Shown here: positions 13,400 through 43,795 of the stretch, one piece after another | Layout of the letters: each line of letters begins with the position of its first letter | Numbering within the stretch: position 1 is the first letter of the stretch | Assembly: GCF_020715685.1 (NCBI RefSeq) | Contig: NZ_CP085840.1 | Coordinates: forward strand, 4,354,891 to 4,418,890 | Origin: Dermatobacter hominis | GTDB lineage: Bacteria; Actinomycetota; Acidimicrobiia; Acidimicrobiales; Microtrichaceae | Direction of reading: 5' to 3' | DNA length: 64,000 nucleotides | Program-made: the position numbers and the translations under genes | Notes under the pieces: model-generated | The model's database searches: none | What the model saw: the letters and a program-made list of their open reading frames with translations, nothing else | What the model was told of the DNA's origin: nothing

Positions 13400-13405
13400 C
13401 TGCAG

Positions 13406-13478
13406 TACGCCCCCCGGGACTCGAACCCGGAACCAGCGGATTAAGAGTCCGATGCTCTGCCAATTGAGCTAGAGGCGC
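13406..13478 (-). tRNA. tRNA-Lys (anticodon CTT)
   Basis: rc reads GCGCCTCTAGCTCAATTGGCAGAGCATCGGACTCTTAATCCGCTGGTTCCGGGTTCGAGTCCCGGGGGGCGTA: D-arm GCTC..GAGC, anticodon loop CU-CTT-AA, T-loop GGTTCGAGTCC; CCA not encoded. Confidence 0.8.
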
Positions 13479-13563
13479 ACGTGGCTCCGCCGGGCGGACC
13501 CGGCGGAGTTGGATTGTAGCGACCCGACCTCGACGGCCCGAACCGTCGACGCCTGCCGCTTCG

Positions 13564-13639
13564 GGTGACCGAGGGGACTTGAACCCCCGACCTCCAGGGC
13601 CACAACCTGGCGCTCTAACCGGGCTGAGCTACGGCCACC
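13564..13639 (-). tRNA. tRNA-His (anticodon GTG)
   Basis: rc reads G-GTGGCCGTAGCTCAGCCCGGTTAGAGCGCCAGGTTGTGGCCCTGGAGGTCGGGGGTTCAAGTCCCCTCGGTCACC: extra 5' G(-1) characteristic of tRNA-His, anticodon loop UU-GTG-GC. Confidence 0.85.
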
Positions 13640-13718
13640 AAGGCAAGGCGGACGATCATATACGGTGCCGCCGGGGAGGCTGCAGTCCGGTATCGCCGGG
13701 CCCTGCTCCGTCCCGCTC

Positions 13719-13792
13719 GCCCCCGTAGCTCAGCTGGATAGAGCAAGTCACTTCTAATGACAAGGTCGCAGGTTCGAGTCCTGCCGGGGGTG
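13719..13792 (+). tRNA. tRNA-Arg (anticodon TCT)
   Basis: GCCCCCGTAGCTCAGCTGGATAGAGCAAGTCACTTCTAATGACAAGGTCGCAGGTTCGAGTCCTGCCGGGGGTG: cloverleaf with anticodon loop CU-TCT-AA. Confidence 0.85.
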
Positions 13793-13824
13793 CTCAGCGC
13801 AGCGTCGGGGTGCGCCGGCGCGGG

Positions 13825-34173: not shown

Positions 34174-34218
34174 GAGAGCGGGTGACGGGAATCGAACCCG
34201 CATGACCAGCTTGGAAGG
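34174..34218. repeat. attR: 45-bp direct repeat = partial 3' copy of tRNA-Gly
   Basis: gagagcgggtgacgggaatcgaacccgcatgaccagcttggaagg identical to 43721..43765 (3' half of tRNA-Gly: acceptor 3' strand, T-arm, part of anticodon arm). Confidence 0.85.
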
Positions 34219-34331
34219 TCACCCGGGGCGATGTCGCCGACTGTCGCTCCCTGTCATTTCAACAGGTCCGACACTAGGCGACAGGTCCCGAATCCCAGCG
34301 GCCGCGCGCACGGCGCGCGCACGGCTGGTGT

Positions 34332-35150
34332 TTACCGGGCCGGCCGACCGGCGCGTCCTGGGGGAGCGTGGCCGAGCTTGCGGGCTCGTCGGATCCGCTC
34401 TCGGGCTTGCTGCGGGCTGCACGCATGGCCTGAAGCCCTGGCGAGCGCGGCCGCCACAAACGAGTACATCGAGTCAGGTCGGCCGGCAGCCTCCCACGCC
34501 TGGAGAGCGTCTGGCACTGCGTTGACCTGCGCTGCAGCGACGTCGGATGAAACGCGGTCGGACACGGGGCCCTCGGCTCGAGGCGGCTGCAGCATCACGC
34601 TGACGTCCTCGAGATCGGCAGGTCGGAGCGAGCCGTCGTCGACGAGCGCCAGGGCCCTCGCTCCTTCCTTCACGACGTGAGTGAGGGGGATCCTGCGGAT
34701 GTTGCCGGGCGTCGCAGCCGGGCCGCCTTGCCTAGCGATGACGCACACCGCCTCCGGCTCCAGCACGGCCTCGGGGGTGTCATCGGACCAGCGGAGCCTG
34801 ACTCGGTAATCGAAGTCCCCGAGCATCCCGCATGGCTCCGACACGTCCATGTTTACGATCTCGACCAGGCCCGTTCGGAACATGACCTTCCGGCCGGGTC
34901 CGGCCTTGCGGTGGATCTCCGCCGCCGTGTCGCCCGCGTCCGGCAACCGCCGAACACGCATGGCTGCTGCGGGCCGCGCAAGGAACGCACGGGCGCCCTT
35001 GATGAGCTTGTCGATCCCGGCGTACTGGCCACCCCGCAGCTTTAGGGCTGCGCGACTCCGCAATCGAGCGAGCTCGTCCTCCCACGGCGGCAGATCGAGC
35101 TGGGGACGTTCGACCGAAATGTGGGTGGGGGGTGCTGGTGGCATACCCAC
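34332..35150 (-). CDS. hypothetical protein (att-adjacent cargo of the integrated element)
   Basis: 272 aa, balanced composition (K/D/E present, not Arg-biased), lower-GC DNA; divergent from excisionase gene; no recognisable domain. Confidence 0.5.
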   Translation of the reverse strand: MGMPPAPPTHISVERPQLDLPPWEDELARLRSRAALKLRGGQYAGIDKLIKGARAFLARPAAAMRVRRLPDAGDTAAEIHRKAGPGRKVMFRTGLVEIVNMDVSEPCGMLGDFDYRVRLRWSDDTPEAVLEPEAVCVIARQGGPAATPGNIRRIPLTHVVKEGARALALVDDGSLRPADLEDVSVMLQPPRAEGPVSDRVSSDVAAAQVNAVPDALQAWEAAGRPDSMYSFVAAALARASGHACSPQQARERIRRARKLGHAPPGRAGRPAR

Positions 35151-35219
35151 ATTCTTCCATCGATTGTTGGGACTTGAGCGACATCACCGGGATGTCCGAG
35201 ACCAAAGGGAGGCCCGTCG

Positions 35220-35414
35220 GTGGCCGAGCTTCGCAAGATGCTGTTCTCCATGCAGGAGGGGTGGGAGTCGACCGGCCTCGGTCGCACCACGTTCCTGCAC
35301 CTGGTCCGCGAAGGCAGGATCGAGACGGTCCGGGTGGGCCGGCGCCGGATGGTCACGGCCGATGCGCTCGAGGCGTTCGTCGATTCGCTCAAGGCCGACC
35401 AGGACGCGGCCTGA
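35220..35414 (+). CDS. xis: excisionase / AlpA-like HTH_17 DNA-binding protein
   Basis: 64 aa; LGRTTFLHLVREGRIETVRVGRRRMVTADALEAFV is the classical excisionase/MerR-like winged HTH. Confidence 0.75.
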   Translation: MAELRKMLFSMQEGWESTGLGRTTFLHLVREGRIETVRVGRRRMVTADALEAFVDSLKADQDAA

Positions 35415-36094
35415 TGTCGGACATCTCCGTCCTCCGCCAACTCGCCGAGCGAGCGGCCGTCGTTGAGCTCGCGCGAGCCGGCGCAGCCGAGGCGACCGGC
35501 AGCTCCGAGAACTTCGAACGTCACGTTCTCGAGGCCGCCGACGTGCTCGCACAGATGTTCCTTGTGGACGCCATCGGTGTTCCGTACGTGATCGAGGCGC
35601 TCAAGTCGCACGGCCCTCTCGTTCGACCGGGCGACTTGCTGGCGGCGACGGAACTGGCCTCCGACGCGATCGCACGGATCGCCGATGAGCGACCCGCCGT
35701 GCTCCACCCGGACTGCTCGAAGTGGATCGACACGGCGATCGTCGAGTTCGACAGCGCCGACCGAGACAGGGTGGCGGCTGCCGCCACCCTGGTGATGAGC
35801 GTCGACGGCATCTCGATGCCGGGCGACCTGCCCCTCACCGACGAGCTGCGCGACCTCGCCGGGGAATGCACGGCTGCAGACCTCCGCGCTGGCATCAGGG
35901 TCCGGGAGCTCCACGCCAAGGAGCTCGCAGACTCGTCGACCCGTCTGGCGGAGCTCCTCCAGACGCTGGAGCACCCCATGTTGAACCGGGGCCTGACGCT
36001 CGAGGAAGCGGTCAACGAGCTGAGCGGCGAGGACCGAGTCCACGCCGAGGAGCTGCTCGCATCATTGCCCACGATCCTGTGCGTGGTCCGCTGA
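35414..36094 (+). CDS. hypothetical protein
   Basis: ATG at 35414 overlapping xis stop (TGATG); 226 aa acidic helical protein; no family assigned. Confidence 0.5.
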   Translation: MSDISVLRQLAERAAVVELARAGAAEATGSSENFERHVLEAADVLAQMFLVDAIGVPYVIEALKSHGPLVRPGDLLAATELASDAIARIADERPAVLHPDCSKWIDTAIVEFDSADRDRVAAAATLVMSVDGISMPGDLPLTDELRDLAGECTAADLRAGIRVRELHAKELADSSTRLAELLQTLEHPMLNRGLTLEEAVNELSGEDRVHAEELLASLPTILCVVR

Positions 36095-36095
36095 C

Positions 36096-36284
36096 GTGGC
36101 CCAGACGCGAACCGACCGGGCGCTGGTGACGCCCGGTCGGCCAGTCGTTCACGACGACGGAATCACCAGCGATCCTATCGACCGCTACAGCCGACGAACC
36201 GCTGGCCGCTTCTGGGAGCGCCAGGCGGAACGCGACGAGCAGATGCGGAAGACCTGCCAGCACTGTGGACGTGAGGCGTCATGA
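36096..36284 (+). CDS. small hypothetical protein
   Basis: 62 aa ORF ending CQHCGREAS, stop overlaps RepA-like start (ATGA), consistent with translational coupling; weak. Confidence 0.3.
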   Translation: MAQTRTDRALVTPGRPVVHDDGITSDPIDRYSRRTAGRFWERQAERDEQMRKTCQHCGREAS

Positions 36285-37303
36285 GGGGCGATGTCGACGC
36301 TCCTCCGAGGCGCACAGCGTGGACCGCGTCGGAGCTCATGGCCGCGGTGTTCCCCGATCCGAAGTGGGCCGTCCCGGGCCTGCTCTGCGAGGGGTTGAAC
36401 TTGCTCGCCGGCGCTCCGAAGCTCGGCAAGAGCTGGTTCGCGTTGAACGTGTGCGTGGCCGTCGCCGCCGGCGGGCGGGCTCTGGGCGCCGTCCAAGTCG
36501 AGCAGGGCGACTGCCTCTACCTGGCCCTCGAGGACACCCCGCGCAGACTGCAGTCTCGGCTGCGTCTCGTGCTGGGTGACGAGCCTGCGCCTGATCGTCT
36601 CACTGTCGACGTGGAGTGTGCACGGTTCCCGGACGGCGCGTCCAAGGTCGCCCAGTGGCTTCGTGACCACCCTGACGCGCGGCTCGTGGTTGTCGACGTG
36701 CTGACGAAGGTGCGCCCGGTTCCGGACGGCACGGTCGGGCGCTACGAGGCGGACTACCTGGCGGTGTCGGCCATGAAGGCGCTCGCCGACGACCACGGCG
36801 TGGCGCTGCTGGTCGTGCACCACACCAGGAAGCAGGAGTCGGTCGACTACCTCGACAGCGTCTCAGGCACGCAGGGCCTCGCCGGCGCCGCCGACGCGGT
36901 GCTCGTCCTGGCCCGTTCGCGCGGGTCAGCGCAGGCGGTCCTGAAGGTCACCGGGCGAGACATCGAGGAGACCGACCACGCCCTCGACTTCGACGCCTCC
37001 ACCGGGCTGTGGAAGCTCCTCGATGGGCCGGCCGAGGACTACCTCCTGCAGGACACCCGGCGACGCATTCTCCAGCACCTCCGGGACCAGGACGCTGCGC
37101 TTCAGCCGAAGACGATCGCCTCGGCGCTCGACCTCAATCACGAGTCGGTGAAGAAGACCTGCCAGCGCATGGCAGGCGACGGGCAGCTCGAGAACGACGG
37201 CGGCCGCTACCGCCTCCCCGTGTCCCCTGTCCCTCCTGTCCCTCTGTCCCTCATCGAGGGGGACACAGGGACACGGGGGACACCAGATAGGGGGCCCCTG
37301 TGA
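36281..37303 (+). CDS. RepA-like RecA-family ATPase (AAA_25)
   Basis: 340 aa; Walker A LLAGAPKLGKSWFALNV, Walker B-like LVVVDVLT, HHTRKQ motif; architecture of AAA_25 replication/primase-associated ATPases common on integrative elements and phage satellites. Confidence 0.75.
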   Translation: MRGDVDAPPRRTAWTASELMAAVFPDPKWAVPGLLCEGLNLLAGAPKLGKSWFALNVCVAVAAGGRALGAVQVEQGDCLYLALEDTPRRLQSRLRLVLGDEPAPDRLTVDVECARFPDGASKVAQWLRDHPDARLVVVDVLTKVRPVPDGTVGRYEADYLAVSAMKALADDHGVALLVVHHTRKQESVDYLDSVSGTQGLAGAADAVLVLARSRGSAQAVLKVTGRDIEETDHALDFDASTGLWKLLDGPAEDYLLQDTRRRILQHLRDQDAALQPKTIASALDLNHESVKKTCQRMAGDGQLENDGGRYRLPVSPVPPVPLSLIEGDTGTRGTPDRGPL

Positions 37304-37536
37304 GAGAGACCTCCGCTGCGAAGGCTCGTCGGTACCTCACCGAAGGCCGTGTCCTGCTTCTGCACGTCGGTCAACTCCGTGTCGTCGCGCAGGTTCGCGG
37401 CGACGGCTGCGTGCACGAAGTGAGGGTCAGCGGCCCCTCTTGGCAGTGCACCTGCCCCGCTCGAGGGCGCTGCTCGCACCAGCTCGCCGTCGGCCTCGTC
37501 GTTGCCATCGATCACGAAGCCCCCGCACCTCACTGA
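37300..37536 (+). CDS. SWIM zinc-finger small protein
   Basis: 78 aa; WQCTCPARGRCSHQ = CxCx5CxH SWIM pattern; start overlaps RepA-like stop (ATGA). Confidence 0.45.
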   Translation: MRETSAAKARRYLTEGRVLLLHVGQLRVVAQVRGDGCVHEVRVSGPSWQCTCPARGRCSHQLAVGLVVAIDHEAPAPH

Positions 37537-37553
37537 CCCCGAAAGGACTACCC

Positions 37554-38465
37554 ATGCCCACCCGATCCACCCTCCATCCGCAACAGGACGTCCGACGTGT
37601 CCTCCGCGCTCTCGACGCTGCCGGACTCGGCGACGCCATCCCCGACGTCCGGACGACGCTCGACCGCGCCGAGCACCTCGCCCGCTCGGCGTCGCAGGCC
37701 CCGCGCGAGATCGCGGACGTCAGCCACGAGCTCGCCCGCCAGCTCGCCGCCGGAGCGATCACACCTGACGAAGCAGGCGCCGCCGTCCTCGACGCCGAAC
37801 GTGCTCACGCCGCACACGGCGCGGGCGTGAAGCTTCTGCGAGCCGCTGGCGACATCGCCGCTCGCAAGGCGTCTGACCTCCTCGCCGCCGAAGCCGAGAC
37901 CCTCATCGCCGACACCCTCTGGCCCGCGGGCGTGAAGGTCATCGAAGCGGCCGTCGACGCCGGCGACCAACTCCCCGACGACGTGCACTCTGCCGAGGAC
38001 GCCATGAACGGCGACCCCGTCACCCGCCGAGCCTGGGCCCAGCTGCACGACGCCGCCACCGCCTGGAAGCTCCTCACCGCCGCCGCTTGGGAGCTCCACA
38101 ACGGAGGCTTCACCCGCCTCTCACCCCGAGCCGCAGCCGCCGCCGAGACCAACGCCGGCCGCCGCCTCTTCGAGTACCGCAACCCCGACCAGGTCCTCTC
38201 CCACGTCGGCCTCCCCGAACCGCTCGTCCTCCTGAACGACATCCGCTCAGGAGCAGAGCCCGAGATCCAGACCCTCGAGCAGCTCCGGGCCACCGAAGCT
38301 GAGGTCGACCGCCGAGTCGCCGAGGAGCGCGACGCCCTGGCGTTCGCCGCTCGCCCCAACGTCAGCACCCCGAACAGCGAGCGAGCGAAAGCAGCAGCCC
38401 GCGAGCTCAAGGCCGAGCTCGCCGCCGAAGCCGCCCTCGTCCCCGAACCGGAGGACGCCGCGTGA
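37554..38465 (+). CDS. hypothetical Ala-rich helical protein
   Basis: ATG at 37554 preceded by gaaagga; 303 aa; no family assigned. Confidence 0.5.
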   Translation: MPTRSTLHPQQDVRRVLRALDAAGLGDAIPDVRTTLDRAEHLARSASQAPREIADVSHELARQLAAGAITPDEAGAAVLDAERAHAAHGAGVKLLRAAGDIAARKASDLLAAEAETLIADTLWPAGVKVIEAAVDAGDQLPDDVHSAEDAMNGDPVTRRAWAQLHDAATAWKLLTAAAWELHNGGFTRLSPRAAAAAETNAGRRLFEYRNPDQVLSHVGLPEPLVLLNDIRSGAEPEIQTLEQLRATEAEVDRRVAEERDALAFAARPNVSTPNSERAKAAARELKAELAAEAALVPEPEDAA

Positions 38466-38668
38466 TGGGCAACCACCACGACCGCGAGAGGGCGCGCGCT
38501 GCGGCACGCGACCTCGACGCCGAACAGCAACCGAGCGACGACCTCGCCGCCAAGCTCGCCAACCTTCGCTCCGGTGGCGTCAGCCCCGAAGACCTCGGCG
38601 GCGACCCGAGCGACGCCGACCTCGATGAGCTCGTCGCCCGCACCCAGAAGCGGCCCTTCAGCGTCTGA
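38462..38668 (+). CDS. small acidic hypothetical protein
   Basis: 68 aa; start overlaps upstream stop (ATGA). Confidence 0.4.
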   Translation: MMGNHHDRERARAAARDLDAEQQPSDDLAAKLANLRSGGVSPEDLGGDPSDADLDELVARTQKRPFSV

Positions 38669-38864
38669 TGATCTGCACCGGCGACTCGGGAACGGCAAAC
38701 CGGCTGCGGCCGGCTGTCGTCGTCGCGTGCACCCCGGTGTCGGGGGCGGAGCTTGACCGCGGCCGTCCTCGACACCGGACCCCCTTGGCAAGCGCACCCT
38801 CGGTCACTGCGGAGCCGGTCGGCCCTGCTCCACCGATTTGTGTGTGAAGGATCAGGACTGACCC

Positions 38865-39164
38865 ATGCCGAAACGAACGGGCCGTCGCTGGCGCGAGAAG
38901 ATCGTCCCGAGGGTGATCCGCCGCGACGGTGGACGGTGTCACCTGTGCGGGAGGCTCGGAGCCGACAGCGCCGACCACATCATCCCGTGGAGTCACTTCC
39001 CGCCCGACCAGAAGCACCTCGCCGACCGGCTCGAGAACCTGGCCGCAGTCCACAACGATCCCTGCAACCGGATCCGCGGAGCCCGGTCCGTCGTCTGGGC
39101 TCGAGCTGAGATCGCTCGCCGCAACGCGGTGGCCGAGCAGGCGGCGGCGGGGTGGAAGTGGTGA
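38865..39164 (+). CDS. HNH endonuclease
   Basis: 99 aa; CHLCG...DHIIPWS...N...H...CN HNH motif with zinc-binding Cys pairs; RBS-like aaggatcagga upstream. Confidence 0.75.
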   Translation: MPKRTGRRWREKIVPRVIRRDGGRCHLCGRLGADSADHIIPWSHFPPDQKHLADRLENLAAVHNDPCNRIRGARSVVWARAEIARRNAVAEQAAAGWKW

Positions 39165-39598
39165 CGGGGGTGGGGGGGAAGCCGAAGTCGACCCGAAACG
39201 GAGCCATCGGCGTCGGCTCCGCCATCTCCCCCCGGCATTTTTTTGCACCGCTGGAGGGGCTCATTCGGCCTCTCGGCCGTGTGGAAACTCGCCTGTGTGT
39301 AAGAAACGGCGCTGCGCCGATCGGCTCCGTCTGTGGCGGTTGCGGGGCACTCCCCAGGTCGTCAAAGGACGCCGAGTGTCAAGGTCAGCTCAGGTCGGCG
39401 AGCTCGAGCAGACGGTCGAGGCGCTCGACCAGCTGTGGCCATGTCTCGGTCAGGGCGAGCCGCTTGTCGGGGTGCAGGACGAACTGGTCTCGGATCCCCG
39501 TAGCCAGGCCGGCGTACTGGGCGAGACGGACGAGGTCGCGGTCGGAGCGGGCCACGCCGCCGACGGTAGGTCGCTCGTGTGACGGTCAGCCGTGGGCG

Positions 39599-39991
39599 TC
39601 ACGCGGCGGCGCGCCCGGCGGTGACCGCTCGCTGGCGACGGCGTTCCTGAGGCGACGTGCCGGCGAGGATCCCGTCGTTCGCCGCAGTGCCCTGCTCCCG
39701 CGCCCAGACCGAGCACTCGGGAAGCACGGCGCAGGACGCGCACAGGGCTCGGGCTTTGGCCCCGGAGTTGGCGGGGAACATGACGGCGGTCTGACCGCGG
39801 CAAGCAGCCTCGGTCTGCCATGCGGGCTCCGGGCCGATCGCCTCGAGGAGCACCGCCAAGGCTTCGGCTACGTGCTGCAGCTGCTCCTCGCGCTTGCGGT
39901 CAACGTCGTCCGCTGCGGCCAGAAGCAGGGGGAGGCTTTTCACGTTGTCACCGTACCGCTTGCGCAACCCGCTGGTTGCGTAGCGGATCAA
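39599..39991 (-). CDS. WhiB-like (Wbl) iron-sulfur transcription factor
   Basis: 130 aa; C-x22-C-x2-C-x5-C (AACRGQ...CASCAVLPEC) spacing of WhiB family followed by basic tail. Confidence 0.7.
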   Translation of the reverse strand: MIRYATSGLRKRYGDNVKSLPLLLAAADDVDRKREEQLQHVAEALAVLLEAIGPEPAWQTEAACRGQTAVMFPANSGAKARALCASCAVLPECSVWAREQGTAANDGILAGTSPQERRRQRAVTAGRAAA

Positions 39992-39997
39992 CGGGAT

Positions 39998-40555
39998 CTA
40001 CCGCTTTCGACGGCGAGCGCGGCGTCTGCTGAAACGAGCCGACGACAGCCGACCGTCCGGCCATCTGACCCACCTCCGGCCCTGGCCGTCACGAAACCAC
40101 AGAACTACCGGGACGACGCGGGGACCACCACCGAAGCTCTCGATCAACGGTCCCCATTCGACGACCTCGCTGATCGATCGAGGCACGATCAGGCTGTAGT
40201 AGCGGCCGCCCATGTGTTCGCCTGTCCACACGTCGGTGGGACGGCGGAGCCGCCAGAACCACCTCCGCCGGCCCCAGTCGAACAAGGCGATAGACGCATC
40301 GAGGATTGGTGTCTCCCCGTCGTTCTGGATCGCCGCTGCAGTGATTGCGAACCCGTCGGGGCGTGGTTGTCCGTTCACGGGCAACGTTGCCGCTGCGGAT
40401 CGGACAAACACCGCCGCCGCAGCTGCGCGGCGACGGTCCCATTGCGCAACGACAAACGTGGCGACTGCGGCGAGTCCGCCGAGCACGCCGAGCACAGCGA
40501 TCGTCCGGCTCCACGTCCACCAATCCGGCCACTGCGCCGCAGACACCCTTCCCAT
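39998..40555 (-). CDS. hypothetical membrane-anchored protein
   Basis: In-frame ATG at 40555 of ORF 39998..40648; N-terminal TM (WSRTIAVLGVLGGLAAVATFVVAQW); Trp-rich body; no family. Confidence 0.45.
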   Translation of the reverse strand: MGRVSAAQWPDWWTWSRTIAVLGVLGGLAAVATFVVAQWDRRRAAAAAVFVRSAAATLPVNGQPRPDGFAITAAAIQNDGETPILDASIALFDWGRRRWFWRLRRPTDVWTGEHMGGRYYSLIVPRSISEVVEWGPLIESFGGGPRVVPVVLWFRDGQGRRWVRWPDGRLSSARFSRRRARRRKR

Positions 40556-40668
40556 CGGCCGCACGCTACGGCAGCGGCTGGGGCTACGGTGGCGCCGACA
40601 ACTGAGTGGGCCCGGCGCTGCGTCAACAGCCCGGGCCCTGGCCAACACCTACAGAGGAGGTGCTGACG

Positions 40669-41163
40669 GTGGACGACTCTACGTTCCCCGACCTGGCGAC
40701 CGTGCTTGATGCCGGCGCCTTCCCCGCCGACGACGACGGCCTGCGCTCGACGCTGGCCGAGGCGCTCGTCGACCTAGCCACGTATCCGGACCTGGAGCGC
40801 CTGGTCGAGCTGCGCCGGACCCATGTCGAGCTCCGCAGGGACCTCGCATGGGCGACAGAGCTCCTCGAGAATCCGCAGCTCGCCGAGCGGATCTTCGACC
40901 AGTACGACGTCGTGTTCCGCCTCGACGTCGAGCAGACCGTCGACCGCGCACGACGCTCCCACCCGATCCACGTCGGCCGCCGTTATGAGTGTCCCGACGC
41001 AGGAGAGCGGTGGAAGTGCGAGAACTGCGGTGTCGGGCACACCAACGACCAGCCGGCGTTCGTCGTTGGTGACCGTCCCGGCTTCTCGGACCTGCCGTAC
41101 CCGATCACGTACTGCGTGCCCTGTGTGCAGATGGCGGTGGCTGCCTTGGAGACTGTCCGATGA
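40669..41163 (+). CDS. hypothetical Cys-rich (zinc-ribbon-like) protein
   Basis: GTG at 40669 after gaggagg; C-term YECPDAGERWKCENCGVGH...YCVPCVQ; stop overlaps int1 start. Confidence 0.45.
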   Translation: MDDSTFPDLATVLDAGAFPADDDGLRSTLAEALVDLATYPDLERLVELRRTHVELRRDLAWATELLENPQLAERIFDQYDVVFRLDVEQTVDRARRSHPIHVGRRYECPDAGERWKCENCGVGHTNDQPAFVVGDRPGFSDLPYPITYCVPCVQMAVAALETVR

Positions 41164-42119
41164 GCGGCCACCGCCTGCGTCGCAGCGAGGGCTGCGACTC
41201 GCTCCTCCCCCTCGCTGCCGAGTCGCGCAGAGGCGTGACCCCGGAGATCCAGACGCTCGTCGAGGCGTACCTGCAGGAGCGGGTCGACCGGAAGCTCATG
41301 AACGAGAAGTCCGCTCGAGGCGTCGGCTACGCGCTGCTGCAGCTCGGCCGAGCTCATGGCGACCGACCCGTCGGCGACCTCGACGACCAGACCGTCGATC
41401 GGTACCTCGACCACTACGCCGACGCTGCGCCCGCGACGCTGCGGCGGGTGATCGCCGCGGCGACCGGCTGGGTCAAGTGGCTGCGTCACCGCGGCGTCCT
41501 CGACCGGGACCCGTTCTGGAACGTCGAGAAGCCATCCCTGCCCCGGTACCTGCCGCGGGCGCTCGACGCCGCTCAGGTACGCGCCGTGTTCCAAGCGTGC
41601 ACCAACCCTCGCGACACGCTCGTCGTGTCCCTGATGGTCAACGAGGGCCTCCGGTGCGTCGAGGTGTCGCGCCTACAGGTCGGCGACCTCGACCTCCGGA
41701 GCCGCACGATGCGGATCCACGGCAAGGGCGACCACGAGCGCATGCTGCCGATCACCGACGAGTCGTGGTCGTGCCTGCGGATCTACCTCGAGACGTTCGA
41801 GCTCGTCGGCGGCCCGCTGCTCAGGGACATCCGCTGGGGCGAACGGGGCCTCACCGCTCAGTGGGTCAGCGACCTCGTACGCGGCCTGATGACGGACGCC
41901 GGCGTGAAGCGCGGCCGCTACGACCGGGTGAGTGCCCACAGTCTCCGCCACACCGCGGCAACGGACATGCTCCGCAACGGCGCCCACGTCAGAGACGTCC
42001 AGCACGCCCTCGGCCACGCCAACCTCAAGACCACCGAGACGTACATGCCCCTCGTCGTGAACGACCTGCGATCGGCCATGAACGGTCGCTCGTACCGCTT
42101 TCCGGAGGTGGACCGCTGA
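41160..42119 (+). CDS. tyrosine recombinase (XerC/D-like, no arm-binding N-terminus)
   Basis: 319 aa; catalytic region HSLRHTAATDMLRNGAHVRDVQHALGHANLKTTETY (R..H-x-x-R...Y). Confidence 0.85.
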   Translation: MSGHRLRRSEGCDSLLPLAAESRRGVTPEIQTLVEAYLQERVDRKLMNEKSARGVGYALLQLGRAHGDRPVGDLDDQTVDRYLDHYADAAPATLRRVIAAATGWVKWLRHRGVLDRDPFWNVEKPSLPRYLPRALDAAQVRAVFQACTNPRDTLVVSLMVNEGLRCVEVSRLQVGDLDLRSRTMRIHGKGDHERMLPITDESWSCLRIYLETFELVGGPLLRDIRWGERGLTAQWVSDLVRGLMTDAGVKRGRYDRVSAHSLRHTAATDMLRNGAHVRDVQHALGHANLKTTETYMPLVVNDLRSAMNGRSYRFPEVDR

Positions 42120-43273
42120 TGGCTTCGATCGTCAAGCGTCAGACCTCGAAGGGCGACACCCACTACCTCGTCCGTTACCGGGACCCGTCCGGCAAGGTCC
42201 GCAACAAGACCTTCCGACGAGCCGAGGACGCGCGTCGCTTCGCGTCGACGACCGAGGCCGACATGGTGCGCGGCGCGTGGGTCGACCCGAACGCCGGCCG
42301 GGTCCTGTTCCGCGACTACGCCGCCCGGTGGGTGGCCGAGCGGACAACCAGCCGAGGCCGGAAGCTCGCGCCGCGCACGGTCGAGCTCTACCGCTCCCAG
42401 CTCGCCAAGCACATCGAGCCGACCTTCGGCGACGTCGACCTGTCGAAGATCACCGTCGCTGCGGTGCGGTCGTGGCACTCGCAGCTCGTCGGCCGAGGCC
42501 ACCCGACCGCCGCCGCGAAGTGCTACCGACTCCTCCGGGCCATCCTGGCGACCGCCGTCGAGGACGACCTGATCCTCAAGAACCCGTGCACGATCAAGGG
42601 CGCAGGCGTGGAGCGGTCAGGGGAGCGCCCGGTGGCCACCGCCGACCAGGTGTGGGACCTCGCCGACGAGATCGACGACCACCTCCGGGCCTTCATTCTC
42701 GTCGGAGCCTTCGCCGGACTCCGGTTTAGCGAGGCCGCTGGTCTGCAACGTCGACACGTCGACCTCTTGCACCGAACGATCACCGTCGAGCACCAGCTCG
42801 AGCGGGTCAGCAAGGCCACCGCAGAGCACCTCGGCATGGACACCGTCGGGTTCGGCCCGCCGAAGTCCGACGCCGGCTACCGCACGCTCGCCATCCCGGC
42901 GCCACTGGTGCCCGAGCTCGAGCGACACCTCGGCATCTACGCCGCGCCGGGGCCCGACGGGCTCGTGTTCGTGGGTCCGCTCGGGGCGCCGCTCTCGCGT
43001 GGCAACTTCACTCACCAGTGGAAGCCGGCCAGGATCGCCGCTGGCCTCCCGGCAGGCTTCCGCTACCACGACTTGCGCCACACCCACATGACGGCGGCAG
43101 CCGAGTCCGGAGCGTCCACCAAGGAGCTCATGCGCCGTCTCGGTCAGTCCTCGCCGGCGGCGGCGCTGCGCTATCAGCACGCGACGGACCGGCGTGACGT
43201 CGAGATCGCCGACGCAGTGGGGGCGACCCTCCGTCGACGCTCGGACGATCGTCGAGCGGGTCAAGGCGCGTAA
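42119..43273 (+). CDS. int: phage-type tyrosine integrase with N-terminal arm-type DNA-binding domain
   Basis: 384 aa from ATG overlapping int1 stop (TGATG); N-term KGDTHYLVRYRDPSGKVRNKTFRRAEDARRF (AP2-like arm-binding), catalytic HDLRHTHMTAAAESGASTKELMRRLGQSSPAAALRYQH. The 816-aa track ORF 40823..43273 is an artefactual extension. Confidence 0.85.
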   Translation: MASIVKRQTSKGDTHYLVRYRDPSGKVRNKTFRRAEDARRFASTTEADMVRGAWVDPNAGRVLFRDYAARWVAERTTSRGRKLAPRTVELYRSQLAKHIEPTFGDVDLSKITVAAVRSWHSQLVGRGHPTAAAKCYRLLRAILATAVEDDLILKNPCTIKGAGVERSGERPVATADQVWDLADEIDDHLRAFILVGAFAGLRFSEAAGLQRRHVDLLHRTITVEHQLERVSKATAEHLGMDTVGFGPPKSDAGYRTLAIPAPLVPELERHLGIYAAPGPDGLVFVGPLGAPLSRGNFTHQWKPARIAAGLPAGFRYHDLRHTHMTAAAESGASTKELMRRLGQSSPAAALRYQHATDRRDVEIADAVGATLRRRSDDRRAGQGA

Positions 43274-43569
43274 CCGAAGCCCTCCATGCACTCCTCGTAG
43301 CTCATGCTGTACGTGCCGCTCTCGCTGATGGTCTTGCAAGTCCGGCTTGCAGAGGCGGGCGCAACCGGGGTGCCGATGTCCTCGACCGACTCAGTTCCGT
43401 CGTCCACCGAAGGAACGTAAATCGGCTCGTCAGGACTCGAGCTTCCGCCGCCGAGCATCAACCCGGCGGCGATGGCGCCCACGAAGAGGATGACCATCAC
43501 CGGTACGCCGACGTACCAGGGGATGTCGATCTGGGCTGCCAGAGACTGCTTGCGGGGTTCCTCGTCCAT
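43261..43569 (-). CDS. small hypothetical membrane protein
   Basis: In-frame ATG at 43569 (MDEEPRK...IPWYVGVPVMVILFVGAIAAGLMLGG...); one TM helix; between int and attL. Confidence 0.4.
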   Translation of the reverse strand: MDEEPRKQSLAAQIDIPWYVGVPVMVILFVGAIAAGLMLGGGSSSPDEPIYVPSVDDGTESVEDIGTPVAPASASRTCKTISESGTYSMSYEECMEGFGYAP

Positions 43570-43720
43570 GCCATAGGCATCGGCGCCCGGCCTGAACGGC
43601 TGAAACGTTGGTACTGCGAGCCGAGTCCGCGCGCAGGCCGCGCGCACGGCTGACGAGCGGGTGAATATGGGCCAGGACGCGCAAATGGCCGAACCCCTTG
43701 CAACCGTAGGGATCCGGCCG

Positions 43721-43765
43721 GAGAGCGGGTGACGGGAATCGAACCCGCATGACCAGCTTGGAAGG
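43721..43765. repeat. attL core: 45-bp direct repeat within tRNA-Gly
   Basis: Identical to 34174..34218. Confidence 0.85.
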
Positions 43766-43795
43766 CTGGGACTCTCGCCATTGAGCTACACCCGC
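43724..43795 (-). tRNA. tRNA-Gly (anticodon TCC)
   Basis: rc reads GCGGGTGTAGCTCAATGGCGAGAGTCCCAGCCTTCCAAGCTGGTCATGCGGGTTCGATTCCCGTCACCCGCT; anticodon loop CU-TCC-AA; T-loop GGTTCGATTCC. Confidence 0.85.

Follow-up and report, generated by a model that had tools for sequence, protein, structure and literature searches.

A mobile island in tRNA-Gly of Dermatobacter hominis, probably an integrated plasmid without transfer genes of its own

We analyzed a 64,000-nucleotide stretch of DNA from Dermatobacter hominis (contig NZ_CP085840.1, positions 4,354,891 to 4,418,890 of the forward strand), hereafter called the window, to which all coordinates refer, and describe a 9.6-kb island lodged in its tRNA-Gly gene (34174–43765). 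The island is a real mobile island. It is probably a non-self-transmissible integrative-replicative element, in other words a plasmid parked in tRNA-Gly(TCC), which belongs to a sparsely sampled Acidimicrobiia family and is built around a core of the type known from SLP1, an actinomycete integrative and conjugative element (AICE). Two island proteins are 100% identical to NCBI proteins of D. hominis (Acidimicrobiia, Iamiaceae), in agreement with this host. Judging from its sequence, the island can probably excise and replicate itself. As it carries no translocase, relaxase, terminase, or virion gene, its passage between cells must rely on something else.

Island boundaries, replication core, and missing functions

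A perfect 45-nt direct repeat brackets the island (34174–34218 and 43721–43765). The left copy, attL, is a displaced copy of the tRNA-Gly 3′ end, and the right copy, attR, lies inside the intact integration target, tRNA-Gly(TCC) (43723–43795, minus strand; detected by ARAGORN and scored at 66.5 bits by the Rfam tRNA model), where it overlaps the 3′ 43 nt of the gene. A non-coding RNA family scan of the island found this tRNA alone. Genes were called by third-position GC content (GC3 frame plot) and the island proteins were scanned with Pfam, PHROGs, NCBIfam, and PADLOC. The 9.6-kb span holds about 16 tightly packed genes, and its GC content is ∼0.69 as compared with 0.74–0.77 outside. Both flanks consist of host genes, namely those for SPFH, beta-lactamase fold, alpha/beta hydrolase, and STAS proteins (two of the latter) and for a CAAX protease, which rules out a larger prophage reaching past the repeats. 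With host genes on the flanks and no virion genes inside, the original prediction, made from the sequence before any database search, was right in saying that the island is not a prophage, and its label of a minimal integrative element fits.

Candidate arm-type integrase sites are present at both ends: CGCGCGCACGG occurs as a tandem pair 84 nt inside attL (34302–34327, plus strand), and CGCGCGCAGGC followed by CGCGCGCACGG lies 69 nt inside attR (43627–43652, plus strand). The exact 11-mer CGCGCGCACGG occurs in three copies in the window, all beside att sites and on one strand, the copy on the attR side being adjacent to a degenerate one.

The replication gene, repA (36281–37303, plus strand), encodes an AAA_25 ATPase of the hexameric-helicase type (E 1.6e-32) with a C-terminal winged helix-turn-helix (wHTH) that gives a weak HTH_20 match. 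Its best relative of solved structure is the RSF1010 RepA helicase (PDB 1G8Y, E 4.7e-6), and it matches helicase and primase-helicase families of PHROGs. An AAA_25-domain protein is also encoded by the largest gene of a free 8.3-kb plasmid, pATHE01. The final 80 nt of repA harbor a hairpin-forming array (37222–37281; folding z = −3.3) made up of GTCCC in four direct copies and GGGAC in three inverted ones, which we regard as a candidate origin. These seven motifs in 60 nt, against 0.19 expected, are the sole such cluster in the 64 kb, and no clt-like 8-bp arrays or iterons were found elsewhere in the island. The same array occurs at the 3′ end of the AAA_25 gene, or just after it, in 15 of 16 relatives, with 5–8 copies per 280 nt over a background of 0.5–1.1. 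It typically consists of three to five GTCCCC with a spacing of ∼9 nt, then GGGACAC, then one or two GTCCCC. As the array follows the stop codon in one relative (L014) and falls within the coding end in the others, it is the DNA motif that is conserved and not the encoded Val-Pro-rich peptide. The array is seen in AICEs of several actinomycete orders as well as in the island (AAA_25 3′ ends of loci L002–L016, L021, and L010).

The RepAM protein binds 8-bp repeats located in the 3′ end of repAM, the gene that encodes it, where they form a hairpin (PMC2440964). By analogy, we infer that the GTCCC/GGGAC array is an origin bound by the C-terminal wHTH of RepA. In the RepAM origin of the pMEA300 type as in the island array, multiple short identical repeats form a hairpin within the 3′-terminal part of the replication gene, ahead of the gene that comes next in the operon (PMC2440964), whereas the replication proteins are unrelated (DUF3631 versus AAA_25) and the repeat sequences differ.

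The island proteins gave no match to capsid, portal, tail, terminase, or lysis proteins in Pfam and PHROGs, nor to any relaxase family in Pfam. No FtsK/SpoIIIE domain was found with Pfam, and neither the Tra protein of a related AICE (L011) nor an AICE primase-polymerase (Prim-Pol) had a tblastn match in the window. A single Walker A motif exists in the six frames of the island and belongs to the AAA_25 gene, which excludes a hidden TraB/FtsK, TerL, VirB4, or VirD4 protein. According to Pfam and PHROGs, the island has no primase domain, its replication protein being the helicase-type AAA_25 only, and none of the terS, ppi, cpm, or capsid-forming genes; Pfam also detected neither a regulator of the GntR or XRE type nor a Nudix hydrolase, which most AICEs possess. 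The absence of capsid, portal, terminase large subunit, and tail genes and of an FtsK/TraB-like translocase, on which the original prediction was built, is thus upheld, and the profile search of the island open reading frames (ORFs) turned up no translocase or virion protein among those that had been left unassigned.

Relatives of the core and the proposed mechanism

A scan of one genome per species retrieved 67 loci with AAA_25 relatives. The closest matches, at 49–57% identity, come from Streptosporangiales, Micromonosporales, Kineosporia, Pseudonocardia, and uncultured Actinomycetota. In 14 of the loci, all from actinomycetes, the AAA_25 gene is immediately preceded by a Prim-Pol gene and has an integrase, a tRNA, or both 2–3 kb downstream; an FtsK-like Tra gene lies further upstream in 13 of them and a Xis match is detectable in 10. 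In one of these elements (L011), FtsK_SpoIIIE, Prim-Pol, and AAA_25 were confirmed by Pfam. In SLP1, xis is immediately preceded by a pair of replication genes, of which one is Prim-Pol-like (PMC2440964, PMC3218068), and the Tra-PrimPol-AAA_25-Xis-Int-tRNA module of the repA relatives is the SLP1-type AICE organization. The original prediction had set the island apart from AICEs. It is indeed not a complete AICE, as it has no Tra gene, but the contrast was overdrawn, since its type of AAA_25 protein sits beside Prim-Pol in SLP1-type AICEs. No attL was found within 10 kb for most of the AICE relatives. Two that are bounded by repeats measure 6.5 and 9.5 kb, so that a small size does not separate phage satellites from AICEs. 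Among integrase relatives whose genomic context is bounded, the nearest (L021, 43–48% identical) uses the same tRNA-Gly(TCC) and belongs to an element of the Prim-Pol-AAA_25 type.

More distant AAA_25 relatives, with 35–40% identity, adjoin tyrosine integrases in Firmicutes. The one that was examined in full, an 8.3-kb record labeled 'Bacteriophage sp.' (L087, MT836902.1), codes for Int, a NikA-like protein, AAA_25, a MobA/MobL relaxase, and TnpV, with no virion gene among its scanned ORFs. It is a relaxase-bearing integrative mobilizable element (IME), either mislabeled or co-purified with virus-like particles. The record stands among small 'Bacteriophage sp.' entries from human faecal samples.

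Parts of the island's gene order recur in independent metagenome contigs. The excisionase gene xis (35220–35414, plus strand) encodes a MerR/AlpA-type HTH_17 protein (Pfam HTH_17 E 5e-6; TIGR01764 'excise' above cut-off) and is followed by g03 (35414–36094, plus strand), which encodes a 226-aa all-helical protein and lies between xis and the replication gene in every case. The xis-g03 pair precedes replication genes of several kinds. In a Microthrixaceae metagenome-assembled genome (MAG; L069), the gene encodes a Prim-Pol::AAA_25 fusion, and in L078, L079, and L081 it encodes a 937-aa protein that matches primases weakly and has a Walker A motif. The L084 protein, of ∼700 aa, likewise has a Walker A motif, and its N-terminal region resembles a primase-polymerase, both features being recognized by inspection. 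The fusion, the primase-helicase-like 937-aa protein, and the AAA_25-only protein of the island make at least three unrelated Rep proteins behind xis-g03. The replication gene has thus been swapped within a conserved backbone, and the version found in the island is a helicase-only protein of the AICE type. Other parts of this backbone recur as well. The g06-g07 pair is kept in L068, downstream of the 937-aa Rep, and WhiB and g11 adjoin int-xis-g03 in L071. An Acidimicrobiales MAG (L010) carries int (45% identity), a g01-like DUF6214 protein, xis, a zinc-ribbon ORF, and AAA_25 (53% identity).

The metagenomes that contain L071, L082, and L083 are ERZ22305348, Ga0116152, and OFRO01. Two contigs from independent metagenomes, L082 and L083, show the int 3′ end followed by two tandem copies of TTAGGCACCCAC, a hairpin, and a partial tRNA 3′ piece, with g03 ∼1 kb further on. 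In L082, a third TTAGGCACCCAC, a minus-strand g01-like ORF, and xis lie between the att piece and g03. ARAGORN found no complete tRNA in either contig. The contiguity of int, a partial tRNA, and xis-g03 with no complete tRNA points to an element in circular or tandem form whose two ends are joined. Repeats analogous to the candidate arm sites lie beside the core in both contigs, and on both sides of it in L082, in a layout like that of the island, and the same int-to-xis-g03 join is present in L071 across a run of N. The attP junctions are located at 700–1000 in L082, 980–1160 in L083, and 3600–3870 in L071.

The integrase gene of the island belongs to a trio of genes with overlapping stops and starts, g12-rec2-int. 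The last gene, int (42119–43273, plus strand), encodes the tyrosine integrase for tRNA-Gly(TCC) (Pfam Phage_integrase, Int_M, and SAM_3; PHROG_1 E 2.6e-64). Alignment with the Tn1549 Int shows conservation of R, K, HxxR, and Y, while a Gln (LGQSS) occupies the position of the second catalytic His, where relatives and the Tn1549 Int have LGHS (residues ∼340–350, window 43150–43200). This Gln might attenuate the enzyme, or it might be a sequencing difference. The middle gene, rec2 (41160–42119, plus strand), was missing from the gene list of the original prediction; it encodes a XerC/XerD-like tyrosine recombinase with R-K-HxxR-H-Y present (Phage_integrase E 4.5e-28; XerD 1A0P E 9e-22). The first, g12 (40669–41163, plus strand), encodes a 164-aa Cys-rich protein (NCBI protein P0017, 164 aa), a near-orphan for which 5 proteins were found. 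The whole trio recurs in L074 and L075, with identities to the island of 76% for rec2, 60% for g12, and 42–46% for int, and the int gene of these contigs adjoins a different tRNA end. The retention of rec2 next to a diverged, target-specific int suggests that Rec2 and g12 form a multimer resolvase, and fits with Rec2 acting on an element-internal site.

From these features, the following cycle may be proposed. Int and Xis would recombine the 45-bp core at the tRNA 3′ end, assisted by the CGCGCGCACGG arm sites on both sides of attP. The product of g01, which is divergent from the xis operon across the AT-richest stretch with its inverted repeat, would keep the element silent. On derepression, the eight-gene operon from xis to HNH would be expressed and the element would excise as a circle. 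The RepA helicase would load, via its C-terminal wHTH, at the GTCCC/GGGAC hairpin in the 3′ end of its own gene, and replication would then depend on the primase and polymerase of the host, since the island itself has no Prim-Pol gene. The XerD-like Rec2 together with g12 might resolve multimers of the circle. A conjugative helper, a phage, vesicles, or the uptake of free DNA would be candidate routes of transfer.

Several points weigh against an integrated plasmid working in this way. The contigs with an attP junction come from relatives and not from D. hominis itself, and they might instead reflect tandem arrays or joins made during assembly. The island encodes no primase or further initiator besides the helicase, whereas the relatives carry Prim-Pol fusions or the 937-aa Rep, which makes its autonomous replication less certain. 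The array could instead be a clt-like transfer site or a regulatory site, and the Gln at the second catalytic His might weaken Int. Seven genes have no assignable function and could hide an unrecognized transfer or hijacking function. Finally, the roles suggested for g01 and rec2 derive from position and conservation.

Gene content and transcriptional layout

Eight genes with overlapping stops and starts form a rightward operon, xis-g03-g04-repA-SWIM-g06-g07-HNH (35220–39164). It is followed by a leftward block of g09, WhiB, and g11 (39385–40648), by the rightward g12-rec2-int trio (40669–43273), and by the convergent g15 at the right end. The presence of int, xis, a RepA-like AAA_25 gene, HNH, and WhiB, as originally predicted, is borne out by Pfam, PHROGs, and NCBIfam.

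At the left end, g01 (34332–35150, minus strand; called by GC3) encodes a candidate maintenance regulator of 270–272 aa with a C-terminal HTH-like motif, a function suggested by its divergent orientation relative to xis. The HTH_17 Xis thus faces an orphan regulator candidate; no Stl homolog is present. The g01 product is a near-orphan, with 7 representatives among 1.8 billion proteins, and its C-terminus matches the protein at the same position in L010 (E 4e-5), which in turn matches DUF6214. A perfect 9-bp inverted repeat, AATGTGGGT-N18-ACCCACATT (35118–35153), spans the g01 start codon within the lowest-GC stretch of the island and may serve as an operator. No convincing LexA/SOS box was found in the g01/xis switch region, and matches to sigma-70 promoters and terminators were not above chance.

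Within the rightward operon, the g03 protein has 11 homologs, and its AlphaFold2 (AF2) model, with a predicted local distance difference test score (pLDDT) of 83, gave no specific fold match. The 62-aa ORF g04 (36096–36284, plus strand; GC3) has no family match and its stop overlaps the repA start in an ATGA. Next to repA, whose stop it overlaps, a 78-aa ORF (37300–37536, plus strand) contains a SWIM-type zinc-finger motif, CxCx5CxH. Pfam SWIM matches it at E 0.0027 with 17.6 bits, short of the 19.6 set as gathering score, so that the predicted SWIM finger stands here as a sub-threshold motif, while the ORF at 40669–41163 has no SWIM match. The following gene, g06 (37554–38465, plus strand), encodes a 303-aa Ala-rich all-helical backbone protein, a near-orphan with only 5 proteins in a 5.8-billion-sequence database; its AF2 model (pLDDT 64) gave no viral fold match. 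A function derived from structure was rejected for both g06 and g03, the matches being generic helical only. Translationally coupled to g06, g07 (38462–38668, plus strand) encodes a 68-aa acidic protein, 45% identical to the product of the ORF that follows the g06 homolog in L068. The last gene of the operon (38865–39164, plus strand) encodes a 99-aa HNH endonuclease (Pfam HNH E 6e-6; PHROG HNH families) and has a non-coding stretch of 220 nt on its 3′ side.

The leftward block comprises g09 (39385–39555, minus strand), a 56-aa ORF with GC3 of 0.88 and no family match; a gene for a WhiB-like Fe-S transcription factor (39599–39991, minus strand; Pfam Whib E 2.5e-10), which has a 49% identical homolog in L071; and g11 (39998–40648, minus strand), whose membrane-anchored product of at most 216 aa, with one hydrophobic helix apparent in the sequence, is paired with WhiB and has a 42% identical homolog beside WhiB in L071. 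Between int and attR, g15 (43261–43647, minus strand; GC3 0.80) encodes a 128-aa single-pass membrane protein with no family match. Two long plus-strand ORFs, at 39152–40666 and 40823–43273, were discarded as shadow ORFs on the grounds of GC3 and of homologs on the other frame or strand. A defense island was likewise discarded: PADLOC gave only three marginal HNH matches to the candidate family PDC-M01B (E 0.005–0.01).

Elsewhere in the window, the segment 7195–7235 has the lowest GC of all (0.51) and contains a perfect 12-bp inverted repeat, TGGAACCGTCAC-GAT-GTGACGGTTCCA, which is probably an intergenic operator unconnected with the island. Three clustered tRNA genes (Lys-CTT, His-GTG, and Arg-TCT) are located at 13405–13793.

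Other readings of the island and comparison with known systems

The island may alternatively be an IME whose excised double-stranded DNA circle is exported by the FtsK/TraB translocase of a co-resident AICE or plasmid, with the array possibly mimicking a clt site; we consider this unlikely. TraB recognition sites have a short repeat organization that the GTCCC array resembles. The core is shared with AICEs that transfer by means of a single Tra protein (PMC2440964), and the Firmicutes relative L087 is a relaxase-bearing IME. However, the window holds no homolog of an AICE Tra, no relaxase was recognized by Pfam among the island proteins, and AICEs were reported to be absent from Acidimicrobidae, albeit in an old and small sample (PMC3218068). 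Moreover, the array travels with the AAA_25 gene and not with Tra, which fits an origin better than a clt site.

It is still less likely that the island is a decaying AICE-like remnant, immobile and only vertically inherited after the loss of Tra and Prim-Pol. Both genes are indeed missing by comparison with the closest AAA_25 relatives, Int has a His-to-Gln change at a catalytic-signature position, and AICE remnants are common (PMC2440964, PMC3218068). Against decay are the identity of the 45-bp repeats and the ORFs, which are all intact, tightly overlapping, and endowed with a strong GC3 signal. In addition, g03, g06-g07, g12-rec2, and WhiB-g11 are kept at 42–76% identity in other contigs devoid of tra, joined ends occur in relatives, and the candidate origin array is intact.

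The original prediction compared the island to phage-inducible chromosomal islands (PICIs). As a phage satellite, it would be induced to excise and replicate by a helper actinophage and then packaged, the HNH protein and the helper terminase acting at a downstream cos-like site. This is improbable, and we give as little credence to its broader form, in which the island and its Acidimicrobiia relatives would be the first integrated satellite family of Actinomycetota on an AICE-type replicon, exploiting a cos-packaging helper through HNH and g06-g07. The general outline does fit: an integrase, a candidate divergent regulator/xis switch, a replication module, no structural genes, and a size of 9.6 kb. 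The best phage matches of the HNH protein are genome-end HNH proteins of small Gordonia and Curtobacterium phages (E 4e-5 to 3e-4), one of which is annotated as a small terminase; it has one match to a PHROG 'terminase small subunit' (E 5e-7), and the 220-nt non-coding stretch follows its gene. Yet this similarity to phage HNH proteins, to which a role as a cos/pac or packaging nuclease had been attributed in the original prediction, is only slight (E 4e-5), and published maps of AICEs show HNH genes as well (PMC2440964). No HNH homolog was detected in the contig of any relative. Pfam and PHROGs revealed no terS, capsid-size, or other hijacking homolog, neither 50,697 phage records nor IMG/VR contained a relative of the backbone proteins g03, g06, Rec2, or Int, and all identifiable repA relatives are in conjugation-linked elements (AICEs and relaxase IMEs). 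SatelliteFinder rates the combination of int, an alpA-like gene, and a replicase alone ('Type C') as untrusted (PMC10085698). The positive evidence for a satellite is confined to the general outline and the HNH protein.

An integrated plasmid with an SLP1-type core, our preferred interpretation, would place the AICE-type RepA, origin, Xis, and Int core outside Actinomycetales, in a class reported to lack AICEs. The presence of this core without Tra implies that the same replicon can live as a non-conjugative integrated plasmid. The GTCCC/GGGAC array is a strong candidate for the origin of SLP1-type replicons, and the conserved trio of a small protein, a XerD-like recombinase, and an integrase is a lead obtained as a by-product. 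More generally, small int-xis-rep islands should not be called satellites from the absence of genes alone.

Among known systems, AICEs of the SLP1/pSE211 type resemble the island by a tyrosine integrase that acts on a tRNA 3′ end with attP beside int, an HTH_17 Xis, an AAA_25 ATPase 49–57% identical to that of the island, the GTCCC/GGGAC array, and a similar size. They differ by an FtsK/SpoIIIE Tra, their defining transfer gene, and a Prim-Pol, neither of which the island has, and by a GntR or XRE regulator and a Nudix hydrolase, which it also lacks. In the island, xis is at the far end from int instead of directly upstream of it, and an extra XerD-like recombinase is present with its small Cys-rich partner. 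Its host belongs to Acidimicrobiia, the class reported to be without AICEs (PMC3218068). The Firmicutes IMEs composed of Int, NikA, AAA_25, and MobA/MobL share with the island an AAA_25 protein (35–40% identity) encoded beside a tyrosine integrase and are likewise small, at ∼8 kb, but they possess a MobA/MobL relaxase and a NikA-like accessory protein that the island does not have.

PICIs, including the Staphylococcus aureus pathogenicity islands (SaPIs), and P4-like satellites also combine, in ∼10 kb, an integrase and a replication helicase with an excisionase or regulator of the AlpA/MerR type and a divergent switch, which in the island is a candidate one, and are devoid of virion genes. Unlike them, the island lacks capsid genes, terS, ppi, cpm, sid, and psu as well as a primase domain; int and the regulator are located at opposite ends of it, and its backbone genes have no relatives in phage collections. 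Tycheposons, elements of Prochlorococcus that target tRNA genes (10.1101/2020.12.28.424599) and are compared here by architecture alone, belong to a different phylum, and the island has no recognizable adaptive cargo. They are similar to it in that a tyrosine recombinase, xis, and a helicase or primase replication module are located at a tRNA, that they encode neither conjugation nor virion functions themselves, and that excised circular or tandem forms occur; their dispersal is presumed to be passive, in vesicles or capsids. With int, xis, a helicase, and no transfer genes of their own, tycheposons are the nearest functional analog of the D. hominis island.

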